Shown: one piece after another, positions 9,286 through 54,533 of the stretch | Position numbering within the stretch: position 1 is the stretch's first letter | Layout: each line of letters begins with the position of its first letter | Source of the DNA: Octopus vulgaris | Taxonomy: Eukaryota | DNA: 64,000 nt | Direction: 5' to 3' | Assembly (NCBI GenBank): GCA_951406725.2 | Contig: OX597832.1 | Span: 19,716,001-19,780,000, forward strand | Position numbers and translations under genes: made by a program | Notes under the pieces: model-generated | What the model was told of the DNA's origin: nothing | What the model saw: only the letters and a program-made list of their open reading frames with translations | The model's database searches: none

Positions 9286-9326
9286 GATACCTGAAGAGAA
9301 GCATCCCGTTTGAAACTCGGTGTATC
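9286..9326 (+). ncRNA. Degenerate hammerhead motif (cleavage-site nucleotide missing)
   Basis: gatac-CTGAAGA-gaagc..gttt-GAAA-ctcggt-gtatc; stem I extends via aattca/tgaatt. Confidence 0.6.
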
Positions 9327-9374
9327 GATGAATTTGTACCAAACTGTTTTGATCCTTCAGAAATGTAACCACAA

Positions 9375-9555: not shown

Positions 9556-9657
9556 TATATATGCGTGTGTGTGTGTATGTGTGTGTCTGTGTATGTGTGT
9601 AAGTATGCATCAAATATATACCTGTGTATGTGTATATATATATATATGTATATGTAC

Positions 9658-9689
<32 letters not shown>

Positions 9690-9690
<1 letters not shown>

Positions 9691-11378
9691 ATGAAAAAGA
9701 CTACATCACCAATTTTGAACCAAAACCCAGCAACTTCTACGGCTTACCAAAAATACACAAATCAAAAAACATTCAACAGGCAGTAAAAGAACAAGAAAGT
9801 GAGTACATAAAATTATTACATCCAAAAGACCTAAAACTTAGACCTATTATAGCTGGTCCAGCATGCCCTACACACCGTCTAAGCAATTTTATTGACATTG
9901 TTTTGAAACCACTATGTACTTACATACCAAGTTTCATCAGGGATGACATCGACTTCCTGTCCCATCTTCCCAAAACAACAGAAACAAATTCAGTTTTGCT
10001 AAGTTTTGATGTGGTAAGCCTCTACACCAATATTCCACACGATTTAGGAATAAAGGCGATTAAATACTGGTTAGAAAAACATAGAGAAGTGATTCCCAGC
10101 AGATTCACAGTGCCATTTATATTAGACACAGTCAAACTTATTCTAGAAAATAACACATTCTTCTTCAATGGAAAGAATTACATCCAAATTAGAGGCACGG
10201 CGATGGGAACGAGGTTTGCTCCCGTTTACGCCAACTCTGTAATGGGATACTTAGAAGAACAACTCTACCAAGAGGTGGAGGTAAACTATGGCACTGGATT
10301 TAGAAAGTATATTGAAAAGGCATGGAAGAGATACCTAGACGACTGTTTCATAATCTGGACAGAATCTCTAAATACTCTGGAAGAGTTCAATATCCTCCTG
10401 AACAACCTACACCCATCTCTCAAATTTACAAAGGAGATGAGTAGTACCAAATTACCATTCCTGGATATAATGGTAATTAAAAAAGACACCACCATCACCA
10501 CAGATATATACTATAAACACACAGACACACATCAATACCTAAATTTTAAGTCGTGCCATCCACCACATACAAAACGTAACATCCCATACTGCCTAGCCAG
10601 AAGAATTTGTACTATTGTAGAAGATGCAAATATCAGGAACAAACGCCTAATAGAACTAAGAGAATTTTTGCTCAAACAAAAATACCCATCTCTACTTATA
10701 GAAAATGGCATACAGCGGGCTATAAAAATACCTATACAACAACTTAGGACGACCCAAGGAAGAGGAAAACAAGAACAAGTCATACCATTCATAGTGACAC
10801 ACAACCCATGTCACCAGAATATCTTCAACATTGCCAAAGCAAACCTTCCAATCATTGCCCAAAGTAATGAATTAAAAGACATAATCAAGGATCGAGCTAT
10901 GGTGCTTAGTAAAAGACAGCCTAAAAACTTGAAAACATTACTAACAAAGGCAAAATTTGACCTCAGCAACAAAGACCAAACATTCACGGTATCTAAATGC
11001 AATGATAGCCGATGTGGCACATGCCAATTCATACATACCGGTCAATATATAAACACAAAAACCGGGAAAATATTCACAAACGCGAATATGAACTGCAAAA
11101 GCAGAAATTTAATTTACTGCATCAAATGCCCAAATTGTGAAGAAATATATGTAGGTCAGACGGGAAACGCACTATTAGAACGCTCACGTGTACACCGGCA
11201 ACAGATTAGAGACCCAGAGGTCCGTCAGATACCTTTGAGTAACCACCTAGCAACATGTGGTCGGAAAATATATATAATATTTCCATTCTACAAATTACAC
11301 AGCCCAAGTGAAATCGAGAGGAAAATCAGAGAAAAGAATTTTATTGATAAATTCGAACCCATGCTAAATAAGCAATAA
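9690..11378 (+). CDS. Penelope-like retroelement ORF (reverse transcriptase + C-terminal GIY-YIG endonuclease), Neptune-type, 5'-truncated
   Basis: Uninterrupted frame with FYGLPKIHK, LRPII, SFDVVSLYTNIP, GTAMG, RYLDD, LPFLD, Cys linker CNDSRCGTC, and GIY-YIG motifs LIYCIKCPNC..YVGQT, R..H, H..C, E, PMLN. The ORF-track start at 9624 lies in a (TA)n microsatellite; real sequence starts ~9690 with no initiator. Confidence 0.95.
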
Positions 11379-19690: not shown

Positions 19691-19855
19691 ATAATTATTT
19701 ATATGGATATAATTGATGGTTGTTGTTGTTGTTGCTGTGCTTGTTATTTTTGTTGTTTCTCTTAATAGAGCTGGATATTTAAGAGATGAGTAATTACGTA
19801 CATTATTTACATTGTATACATTTGACGGATATTTGTCTTCATGCTGTATGTTGTT

Positions 19856-19901
19856 AACACAACCTTTCGGCTGATATACCCGCCAGCCTTCATCAGGTGT
19901 T
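19856..19901 (-). ncRNA. Minimal hammerhead ribozyme, same family as 20177-20222
   Basis: Minus strand: aacac-CTGATGA-a-ggctg..cagcc-GAAA-gg-TT-gtgtt. Confidence 0.75.
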
Positions 19902-20176
19902 TTGGGAAAATTTCCTAAGGTACTTTTCGATGATATAATGATAATAATAATAATAATAATAATAATAATATTAATAATAATGATAATAATAATAATAATA
20001 ATAATAATAATTATTATTATTATTACTATTATTATTATTGTTATCATTATTATTATTATTATTATTATAACAGTAACAAAAACAACAACAACAATACTAA
20101 TAATAATGATAATAATAATAATACTAACATCGAAACATATCTTAGCAATGAGAACCCAGGTTCGAAATTTCCCCAA

Positions 20177-20222
20177 GACACCTGATGAAGGCTGGAGGGT
20201 ATATCTGCCGAAATGTTGTGTC
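20177..20222 (+). ncRNA. Minimal hammerhead ribozyme
   Basis: gacac-CTGATGA-a-ggc...gcc-GAAA-tg-TT-gtgtc. Confidence 0.75.
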
Positions 20223-21347
20223 AACAACAAACAAGATGAGGACAAATGTATGTCAATGGTAAATAATGTAAATAATTATTTCTATTGTTTTGATTTTTGT
20301 TCTTGTTGTTATTGGTCTTCTTCTAATTGGCCTTAATTCTTCTTATTTCATCACTTACCTTTGATGGTGGTGTTGATTATTTTTCTATTGTTTTTTGTCT
20401 TCGTTTCGTTTATGTTTCATCACAGTTTTACTAATTTGTTCATTTTTACTCGCAAAATATTTCAAAATAGTAAAACATCAATTCCCATTTTTGCGGTTGC
20501 TTTTTTTTTCTTTTGACTGTAATTTATTTTAAACATTTTAAAGCACGTGTATATATCATGGCTCCTGAACCATTTGCTTTCGACATTCTTGATAGGAAAT
20601 ATTCAAATATATAATAGCGGATTTTGGTCATAGCATGAAAAATGCCTGTAGCTGGCCATCCGTGCATTGCGTCTGAAAATACAATTGGTCAATTAAGGAA
20701 AAACGTAAGGAAAATCGAAAAAATCCTATAGCTTCTAAAGTGCCATACTTATAAAACTCAGCAGCTCTAATTTGAGAAACAGAAAGGGAAAGGAAAATAG
20801 CGAGAATGCAAACTTAAATGGTAAAAACCAATGCATTTCCAATAGCTACGTACATTTTGCTAGCGTTGCAGGAGCCTCTGTACGGTGTGTGGAAGGATGT
20901 GTTCTTTACAAGTGTCAGGCCATATGGTAGCATGTGACTGGTTGTTTAATCATGAGAATGAAGCCGGAAAATAATCCTAGTCATTAACTCAATAAGGGCG
21001 AAGGACAATACAAATTTTTAATACTAAAGTTATTGGCACAGGCGTTAGCTGTTGGTTTGTTGTCACCTGTACGGTACGGTGCAGGCAACTCATGAGTGTG
21101 GGGTTCACACTTAATCACTTACGCTGGATCATGTTTGGCTGACAACCTTGTCCAGATGATCCATGAGGGAACTCGAAGTTTTCCAATGACTGCTCTCAAC
21201 TGTGAACAGAGAATACATCAATCAAAGACGTAGTGCAGACTGAAGAATCAAAGTCTTTGAGAAGTGGAAAAGCAAAATACACAATGACGGATTGTATCCG
21301 AAGCGAAGACCATAACTTCATCTTTAAATATAATATGTAATGTAATA

Positions 21348-24981: not shown

Positions 24982-25165
24982 GGCGGGGAGCTGGCTGAAT
25001 CATTACTGTGCCGGACAAAATGCTTAGCGGTATTTCATTCATCTTTACGCTCGCAGTTCAAATTCTGTCGCGATCGACTCCACCGTTCATCCTTTGAGCA
25101 CTGAGGTCGATATAATCGGTTTATTCCCTCCTTCGAAATTGTAGGTCTTCTGCCAAATTATGAAA
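24982..25165 (+). mobile_element. SINE family D (Meta-domain-like)
   Basis: ggcggggagctggctgaatc head, gttcaaattc B box, tcgact..ttcatccttt..ggtcgata central domain. Confidence 0.75.
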
Positions 25166-25865
25166 CTATTATTATGTGTATATATTTCATTCAAGCAGTT
25201 TTTGTCCTGATAGCTATATAAATGAATGTTTAGTTTAAAGTAACTCTCTCTATGGTTATAATTGTAGCATTTTTGGGGTTGCAAATTCTTTGAATTTCTG
25301 GTAGCTGAAAATTCCTCGGTAAACAGCGATAGAAATATCTGCAAAAATTTACCAATATGAATGTTCTTCATAATTGCAAAAGTTCTAATAAAAACTTATG
25401 TCCAAGATCCTGCGATCTGATGGATCAGTTAAGGTAAGATGATGCCTGGATATGATGAACGAAACGGTATTATAACCATTAACATTATCCCGCTTTAAAC
25501 TTCAGACATTTTTGGATATATTTGATAAGACGTGTTTCTCATTGTCTTGATGCGTATATATGTTGTGCGAATCTTTATGTGAAGGCACTGCTAGTAAGCT
25601 CTATATAGTTATTTCTTTCATTATCATCAGCAACTGAGACTCAAGCACGGAAAACTAAAATAAAGATTTACCAGGAAGAATGTATATTCGTGTTTGAAAG
25701 ATTCATCTTGTTCATACTAGTAATGTAAGCAACGAAATTTTTGTGTAACTATGGTCTTAAGAAAGGAATGTTCTTAAGAAATATTACTTTCTTCGTCGTA
25801 AGACCATACGGATCTACATCTAGCATATGGATGTCCACGTAGTGGTCACCCCTCTTATATGTATA

Positions 25866-25907
<42 letters not shown>

Positions 25908-25956
25908 AATAAATGAAAGAATGGAGTTGAACGACGATTTAACAAAATTCCTTTAT

Positions 25957-26037
25957 TCTCGACATATGTTTCGAAGACTGCATATTCCTAATTTCGATGG
26001 AATAAGGGGTGCATTATGCCGCCTTCTCATCAGGAAA
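25957..26037 (-). ncRNA. Type I hammerhead ribozyme, inverted copy of 26144-26224
   Basis: Reverse complement of the same motif with intact core. Confidence 0.82.
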
Positions 26038-26143
26038 GACAAGGAACTTATGTCAGCATCATTTTTATTTTAAAGAATGTACTCCGTGTGGGCAGTCAGC
26101 TAAAAGTTTTTGTTCATCATGATGCTGGCATAACTTCCTTGTC

Positions 26144-26224
26144 TTTCCTGATGAGAAGGCGGCATAATGCATCCCTTATTCCATCGAAATTAGGAATATG
26201 CAGTCTTCGAAACATATGTCGAGA
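26144..26224 (+). ncRNA. Type I hammerhead ribozyme, canonical core
   Basis: tttc-CTGATGA-(gaaggc..gcata....tatgc..gtcttc)-GAAA-catatg-TC-gaga; GUC cleavage predicted after 26220; palindromic ACATATGT. Confidence 0.85.
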
Positions 26225-26421
26225 ATAAAGGAATTTTGTTAAATCGTCGTTCAACTCCATTCTTTCATTTATTTGTATTAAGAAAAGCACACAAATTTCC
26301 ACACGAAAGCACGTGATCTCTGCCCTAGGCATTTAGCTTCAACCGTGTTTTTCTGACGTGAATTTGATACCCGGGTATCGAGTTAACCGAATTATCCATA
26401 CTAGGATAATTCATTCAACTA

Positions 26422-26507
<86 letters not shown>

Positions 26508-27584: not shown

Positions 27585-27725
27585 AAATCAAATAATGGAA
27601 CATTAAAGATAACAATAACAAAACAGGGCGACGAGGAATGTATTAATAAAGATGAAAAAATAGGTTTTCGACGTTCCGAACATCGGTCTTCGTCAGAAGG
27701 GAAAACAGAAACGGTCAGAGAAGAT
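27581..27725 (-). mobile_element. PLE-terminus-like unit with degenerate HHR (27664-27706)
   Basis: Minus strand: gttttc-cctt-CTGACGA-agaccgatgttc-GGAA-cGTC-gaaaac; abuts (TA)n. Confidence 0.6.
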
Positions 27726-54075: not shown

Positions 54076-54533
54076 GGATCTTTTCGGTTTGAACGGCAGT
54101 TTTTAACATAATTTCTATGTAACTAAATAATTTTAAACTTCGTATACTGGTAGAATGTGTTTATAAAACATATTTTTCTCTTGGCTTTATTGAGAAAATT
54201 CTATAGTTTGTAAGATATTTGTTGTTTTTTTTTCTTCAATTTCTGCAATTTCAACCAATCAATGACCGTCTGTTGAGGTGAAAACATTCTACGCCGTATG
54301 AATATGTCCTTCGTTTAAGAAAAAGATTGGGTTTATTTACATTTCTGAAGAAAGAAAGATACCCTTCCACCACCCCTAACCCTAACCCTAACTCTAACAC
54401 TGACTAACCCTAACTCTAACCCTAACCATAAAATAGATTGAAATGCAATAGGTCGATACTAGGGTCATAATTATGGGTGACAATTTCATATGACTCCGCT
54501 AGAAAAAAACTGCCGTTCAAACCGAAAAGATCC
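54076..54533. mobile_element. Merlin-like MITE with internal (CCCTAA)n
   Basis: 29-bp perfect TIR GGATCTTTTCGGTTTGAACGGCAGTTTTT; 8-bp TSD TGAAATGG (54068-54075, 54534-54541). Superfamily inferred from GG ends and 8-bp TSD. Confidence 0.85.

Follow-up and report, generated by a model that had tools for sequence, protein, structure and literature searches.

Among the Penelope-like elements (PLEs), the Hydra clade is characterized, in the available part of its description, by the motifs DKT and RWK, by CxxC and CxH in the nuclease and by the lack of CCHH, and it is further defined by a CxCX5C linker, (TA)n targets and hammerheads (Craig 2021, PMC8557442). The linker has been proposed to target (TA)n. 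In the work of Craig one member (Penelope-13_HM) is listed with a 5'-truncated inverted copy and with hammerheads on both strands, and the formation of inverted structures and tails, the role of the hammerhead and the drive behind microsatellite targeting were left as open questions. Opposite-strand PLE hammerhead pairs have been reported 100-700 bp apart (Cervera and de la Pena 2014, PMC4209133). Inverted 5'-truncated PLE copies with a tail on one end are published, as are Asn-rich inserts in the linker (Arkhipova 2013, PMC3846280) and two RT start sites (Frangieh 2024, PMC11167929). In the last of these studies, as far as its available text goes, the PLE protein cuts and extends both strands, the two start sites define the tail, neither a strand difference in start site nor homology between target and RNA was seen, and in vitro ribozyme mutants still insert. 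For the octopus, one repeat annotation mentions PLEs but, in the available portion of its main text, neither ribozymes nor Hydra. The literature searched, with limited coverage, contained no PLE twin priming, no counted rule for the ends of inverted copies (the A+B rule below) and no linker-less Hydra family, although the supplements of Craig and Frangieh may record them. The octopus family described here bears on the questions that Craig raised for PLEs, namely how inversions and tails form, what the hammerhead does and how microsatellites are targeted.

The inverted pair at the octopus locus

We analysed a window of 64,000 nucleotides from Octopus vulgaris, in which a preliminary description, made from the letters alone, had pointed to a near-perfect inverted pair of hammerheads. 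The pair is confirmed. Two arms of 160 nt, 98% complementary and separated by 56 nt, lie at 25903-26062 and 26119-26278, with three mismatches (right-arm positions 26128, 26134 and 26172) and a hammerhead motif in each. The insertion is flanked by the (TA)n tracts of its target site, at 25856-25905 on the left and 26424-26483 on the right. Its left part (25903-26062, - strand) is an inverted, 5'-truncated copy of the pseudo-LTR whose 3' end is what we call site A, where the inverted arms of other copies also stop. At the junction (26063-26076, + strand) 11 nt matching the 3' UTR of the element are followed, by comparison with other copies, by a 16-nt deletion that takes out an initiator-like TCATT motif. 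Then comes a direct portion of the pseudo-LTR (26077-26278, +) that reads through site A, position 26278 being the monomer junction, as seen from 39 scored copies and from a monomer running from A to A. The last part is a 145-nt tail (26279-26423, +), the 5' UTR of the next monomer, which ends at a second site, B; in full copies the ORF starts ca. 53 nt beyond B. The 56-nt spacer between the arms is the element's own upstream sequence and not foreign DNA.

The intact CUGAUGA/GAAA core and long stem II claimed for both arms are indeed found on the + and the - strand. Each arm holds CUGAUGA, a 54-nt stem II domain, GAAA, ACAUAUGU and C17 (26220 on +, 25961 on -). By sequence and fold the right copy of the type I motif spans 26135-26233 (+), with a stem I of 4 bp + 6 bp, CUGAUGA at 26148-26154, stem II at 26155-26208 (54 nt), GAAA at 26209-26212, ACATATGT at 26212-26219, a 2-bp palindromic stem III and C17 at 26220. 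The left copy spans 25948-26046 (-), with CUGAUGA at 26033-26027, GAAA at 25972-25969 and a predicted cut after 25961. The whole insert folds at -323 kcal/mol (z = -35), a value that none of 100 shuffles equalled. In the predicted fold, 26084-26092, at the pseudo-LTR's 5' end, can pair with 26297-26304, where the tail begins, and would thereby enclose the hammerhead.

The tail also folds well (z = -4.9), and the hairpin at its end, just before B (26389-26412, +), is largely kept, with a loop that varies in diverged copies. Both tail palindromes noted earlier are present (26366-26379; 26389-26397 with 26404-26412), but the perfect 14-mer is a rare variant, found in 2/67 tails. A 15-copy consensus of the tail, with one of 18 pairs showing a double change and a fold unlike these palindromes, gave no covariation support.

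The window holds other traces of mobile elements. A 591-aa open frame at 9603-11378 (+) belongs to a second type of PLE, with RT, a CX4CXXC-like linker and GIY-YIG, which by its motifs we take to be Neptune-like, and a degenerate hammerhead-like motif lies upstream of it at ca. 9286-9327. A second, older inverted pair of another family (19802-19914 / 20164-20276, 113 nt, 85%) carries a short hammerhead-like motif per arm within (ATT)n repeats. Further CUGANGA motifs occur at 27696 (-) and 54967 (+), the former with a possible stem and then GAAA, so that it may be the remnant of another PLE. CCCTAA-like telomeric repeats form a short chromosome-internal tract (ca. 54370-54425), and a very high-copy short repeat (ca. 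25000-25100), deep in all four sequencing runs, is probably a SINE fragment.

The parent element and its abundance

The genome containing the window (2.8 Gb) yielded 2,947 candidates when queried with the right arm plus tail, 40 of which were scored; the 39 other than the window copy had 94-96% identity to the query. An exact 23-mer just past the cut site had 1,011 matches and an exact 22-mer of the tail 500, against 0 for each reversed control. One copy (L032) is a whole monomer of ca. 3.5 kb running from A to A and made up of tail, ORF, 3' UTR and pseudo-LTR with hammerhead, from which it follows that monomers meet at site A and that the tail serves the following monomer as its 5' UTR. Its ORF is frameshifted, and the natural open frames of other copies reach 785-896 aa. 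They encode RT together with a GIY-YIG nuclease at the C terminus in one ORF (three frames span both domains and one stops within the nuclease). The family protein has 32% identity to P0001 over 619 aligned positions (E 4e-93); a Pfam search of five ORF fragments gave GIY-YIG below threshold (E 0.03-0.07) and no RT family. The locus had been read as a PLE insertion with an inverted partial pseudo-LTR, and the RT plus GIY-YIG parent is now located elsewhere in the genome, with the ribozyme core conserved in diverged copies. Beside L032 there is another GIY-YIG nuclease-like frame (L032 1731-3170, -), which suggests that PLE insertions are clustered.

Copies of the family show two fixed 3' ends, A (26278 in the window) and B (26423), 145 nt apart. 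The locus is a 5'-truncated, broken copy of a very abundant PLE inside a TA repeat, and its inverted pair is a real yet ordinary PLE integration product. It had been called young; however, the 3/147 differences between its arms are typical of the family (2.4% pooled), so that the copy is not unusually young. As one of many dead copies it carries little weight alone.

A Hydra-like family that has lost its linker

DKG is changed to DKT in all four family frames, and the two frames that reach the next motif have RWL, a variant of RWK. CxxC (3/3) and CxH (2/2) are found in every frame that reaches them, align with those of P0001-P0004 and flank the conserved E and N of the nuclease, from which CCHH is absent. 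The CxCX5C linker between RT and nuclease is absent from the four family frames; a tract of ca. 120-130 aa rich in Asn and Ser precedes a cysteine-free stretch where the linker would be expected. Both domains were present in 47 of 154 homologs, 44 of which have a CxCx4-8C motif and the other three, by eye, wider-spaced forms. An RT tree was built from 31 rows, none of them a named Hydra reference: 26 homologs from the longer hits, four family frames and, as a very long-branched outgroup, the second PLE frame at 9603-11378 of the window. In it the family nests among linker-bearing homologs that carry no clade names, with support of 97/96, 99/92 and 100/99. This strongly supported position indicates that the loss of the linker is derived. 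Since one defining feature, CxCX5C, fails, we have filed the family as Hydra-like.

RT and nuclease had a pairwise dN/dS of 0.06-0.22 and the Asn/Ser tract one of 0.38-0.68, from which we conclude that the linker-less ORF evolved under selection. A linker-bearing family may mobilise the linker-less one in trans. Three other Hydra-like proteins (P0006, P0037 and P0097) have long Asn-rich linkers and keep the cysteine motif, so the Asn-rich tract may have been gained ahead of the loss of the motif.

Architecture of the copies: one end at A, the other at B

The architecture was examined in 100 listed of the 1,011 23-mer matches, giving 83 loci on C1 and part of C2, a sample that demands an exact match of the 23-mer and under-samples B+B. 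They comprised 48 A+B loci, head to head, 2 A+A, 1 B+B, 28 with a single arm (17 B and 11 A) and 4 other. The inverted partial pseudo-LTR, put forward earlier as a PLE integration signature and described in print, is thus the commonest form of this family (48/83). A second sample, the first 30 of the 500 tail-pattern matches (18 of them common to the first set), gave 18 A+B, 0 B+B, 11 single and 1 unresolved. A+A is rare where the sampling favours it (2 vs 48) and B+B is absent where the sampling favours it (0 vs 18), and because each like-ended class is rare in the very sample that favours it, an independent choice of start site cannot explain the pattern. This A+B rule, read from genomic copies, likely points to coordinated twin priming.

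In the 56 A+B loci the B arm is confined to the tail in 20 and the A arm reaches further upstream in 30, which argues that one arm was not copied from the other. The junctions vary from locus to locus: 28 have microhomology of at least 2 nt, 17 have an insert and 11 have 0-1 nt. At some loci both arms end at nearly the same position, e.g., -149/-150, -46/-46 or -201/-211 relative to A. Two complete ribozyme cores, as in the window, were present at 16 of the 56 (15 within the 83-locus set), which extrapolates to ca. 150 loci with two complete head-to-head hammerheads; if transcribed, these would be a source of long double-stranded RNA.

Arms of the same locus resemble each other more than they do those of other loci. 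Among 33 loci with an overlap of at least 50 nt they differ by 2.5% on average vs 5.4% between loci (Wilcoxon p 1.6e-9), and minor variants common to both arms number 110 where 34 are expected, with 123 discordant sites. Most of the shared variants are subfamily markers, and some are private to one locus, one of them in this window. The likeness fits a single template for both arms, and successive subfamilies and later conversion can contribute to it.

Template ends and (TA)n targeting

The 154 arm 5' ends have a peak at -216 to -198 relative to A (36 ends), 22 lie further upstream and only two fall at -62 to -54, around the ribozyme cut site. The peak coincides with the TCATT motif, and there is another word ca. 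28 nt upstream of it; we read these two, presumably, as initiator-like and TATA-like. Judging from the cDNA ends, we infer an internal promoter and templates that were not cleaved. An extra cap-derived G was looked for at the putative RNA start and not clearly seen. Four loci have the same core change on both arms (C3U in L158 and L166, A6G in L128 and L136), as would be expected if cleavage-defective RNA still transposes. The copy in the window probably derives from the 3' repeat of a longer RNA, given that its initiator is deleted and that it has 11 nt from further upstream.

Precise ends adjoin a TA-rich repeat in 122 of 132 cases; for positions drawn at random from the window the figure is 6.6%. 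Both at A and at B the RNA resembles TA repeat, and the ends often run a few bases into the match, which suggests priming by TA microhomology at both sites; a target-site duplication is not readable within the TA tract. As the targeting of (TA)n is kept despite the loss of the linker, the nuclease core or the microhomology between RNA and target could steer it.

The hammerhead motif

The motif matches the type I core (C3-A9, G12-A14, A15.1-U16.1 and H17) with its three stems. No Rfam family reached its gathering score anywhere in the window (0 matches for the hammerhead model), and, taken by itself, the ribozyme region has a fold no more stable than that of shuffled sequence (z -0.6 and -1.2). 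In 14 diverged copies the core positions differ in 3/154 cells vs 222/1,682 elsewhere, with a p of 4e-6 that is overstated, the rows being related; of 130 distinct copies, 100 have the core pattern intact. Over 27 chosen copies 95.6% of stem II is paired and one pair is compensatory (AU 12, GC 8, GU 3), and covariation over the whole ribozyme structure was not above shuffles, 42-500 of 500 of which reached it. By computation, stem III, of 2 bp, has a probability of 0.01, the active fold lies 6 kcal/mol above the minimum and the stem III palindrome would form an intermolecular duplex of -8.4 kcal/mol. These values match dimer-dependent PLE hammerheads of low activity. Each strand carries a single sense ribozyme, which leaves the stem III palindrome nothing to pair with in cis. 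The preliminary description imagined a competition between the ribozyme fold and the long hairpin; when the full insert is folded, stem II has a computed probability of ca. 1e-58, so that the hairpin wins, and a read-through RNA at this locus is predicted to form a 160-bp double-stranded hairpin without an active ribozyme.

A possible mechanism and its alternatives

We believe, with a probability of roughly 0.7, that both cut (TA)n strands are primed on element RNA at two fixed sites and that the resulting short cDNAs are joined head to head, a reading that starts from the parent, from A and B as fixed ends, from the flanking (TA)n and from the rule of one A and one B seen across copies. The nuclease would cut both strands in (TA)n, after which one target end would prime at A and the other at B, aided by brief stretches of TA match to the RNA. 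Either cDNA would stop early or run off the 5' end of the RNA, which, from the cDNA ends, is probably at the initiator-like motif ca. 210 nt upstream of A, and microhomology or a small insert would then link the cDNA ends. As a passenger, the hammerhead would be duplicated in the process. In the parent lineage it is under selection; it probably works only as a dimer or with the help of protein, and the template does not seem to be set by its cleavage. The fuller proposal, to which we give even odds, is that of coordinated twin priming, one strand per fixed site, on one uncleaved and internally initiated RNA, carried out by a Hydra-derived, (TA)n-targeting lineage that lacks the linker and is steered by its nuclease core or by microhomology.

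Some points weigh against this reading: the use of one site by each strand and the TA microhomology proposed here differ from what Frangieh 2024 saw, the low divergence between arms is also expected from successive subfamilies or later conversion, and the nearly equal 5' ends of both arms at several loci are also predicted by fold-back. The latter idea, already proposed for PLEs (Arkhipova 2013, PMC3846280), has one cDNA, or an antisense template, turn back on itself at a palindrome and provide its own template for the inverted arm, and it would agree with the private variants common to both arms, with the many loci that have similar 5' ends on both and with the microhomology of at least 2 nt at 28/56 junctions. 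We nevertheless regard such self-priming as unlikely, since in 20/56 A+B loci the arms have no sequence in common, in 30/56 the A arm exceeds the length of the template it would have come from, the tail cannot come from an A-primed cDNA and fold-back does not explain why the copy should end at A and next to (TA)n. Slightly less likely again is that each end is primed on an RNA of its own, independently of the other, with the likeness of the arms due to subfamilies and gene conversion and the excess of A+B to sampling. The discordant sites (123) do outnumber the shared minor variants (110), most of which are subfamily markers, and the 23-mer under-samples B+B, but independent priming cannot make both like-ended classes rare (A+A 2 vs 48, B+B 0 vs 18).

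That the palindromic unit is instead a functional module, be it a ribozyme switch under regulation or a retrozyme or MITE that is non-autonomous and mobile as a whole, seems to us very improbable. Both cores are intact at the locus, the core is conserved in diverged copies (by the 3/154 vs 222/1,682 mismatches above) and some sequencing runs guessed to be RNA have contigs with family sequence, though no run listed as RNA was among its holders; against this, the junctions vary between loci, there is no tandem array of the unit at the locus, the hairpin excludes the ribozyme fold and the window copy has no initiator-like motif. In those runs the family sequence lies mostly at the pseudo-LTR and tail, mirroring the DNA pattern, and most of the unique flanks of the locus are uncovered, neither of which has a bearing on expression. 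In two further runs the flank is present at ca. 96% identity, with no contig that bridges the insertion site. Near-perfect inverted repeats between microsatellites are difficult to assemble, and the palindrome could be imagined as an assembly or library fold-back artefact, yet this is hardly credible in view of the three mismatches, the asymmetric spacer and tail, the dozens of loci with differing junctions and the opposite-strand joints in independent public contigs.

Comparison with known systems

In LINE-1 twin priming both target ends prime cDNA on the RNA, producing a 5' inversion joined by microhomology, and the second primer anneals at variable internal sites. The octopus family differs in using two fixed sites and in having arms that frequently hold duplicated sequence. 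With the Hydra-clade PLEs, e.g., Penelope-13_HM and Hydra-1_Obim, it shares RT plus C-terminal GIY-YIG, DKT, CxxC/CxH, (TA)n and a 3' hammerhead with palindromic stem III (Craig 2021, PMC8557442). Unlike them, as far as they are described in the available text, it has no CxCX5C, a long Asn/Ser tract and RWL for RWK; its unit is ca. 3.5 kb against 1.1-3.0 kb for the listed Hydra consensi and its stem II domain 54 nt against ca. 10-24 nt. By eye, the protein and ribozyme of Hydra-1_Obim differ from those of the octopus family.

A close parallel for the priming is PAc (Poseidon, Anolis; PMC11167929), where likewise two start sites bound the tail, both strands are extended, the targets are AT-rich and insertion has no need for ribozyme cleavage. 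Unlike in the available account of PAc, the tail, of 145 nt, is in the 5' UTR and not within the ORF, and the octopus strands would use one site each, with TA microhomology at the ends. A tail of this length compares with the usual 30-40. The hammerhead resembles those of metazoan PLEs (PMC4209133), type I in the pseudo-LTR with an enlarged helix II and a weak palindromic helix III, apart from a longer stem II in three segments; those ribozymes show low activity as monomers, as is predicted for the octopus motif. Penelope of Adineta vaga also has inverted pseudo-LTRs with a tail on one of them and TATA and initiator-like motifs at the pseudo-LTR, and Pen2a of the same species has an Asn-rich insert between RT and nuclease (Arkhipova 2013, PMC3846280); from what is given there, the octopus family departs from the self-priming explanation, the 31 bp tail and the low copy number. 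Non-LTR retrozymes are similar as short hammerhead-bearing derivatives of PLE pseudo-LTRs, but they are head-to-tail tandems whereas the octopus copy is head to head with variable junctions (bioRxiv 10.64898/2026.07.22.740005). We rejected a non-LTR retrozyme at this locus, where there is no head-to-tail hammerhead array. Set beside these systems, what the octopus family adds is the A+B rule, 5' ends away from the cut site and the loss of the linker with targeting kept, which is modest news.
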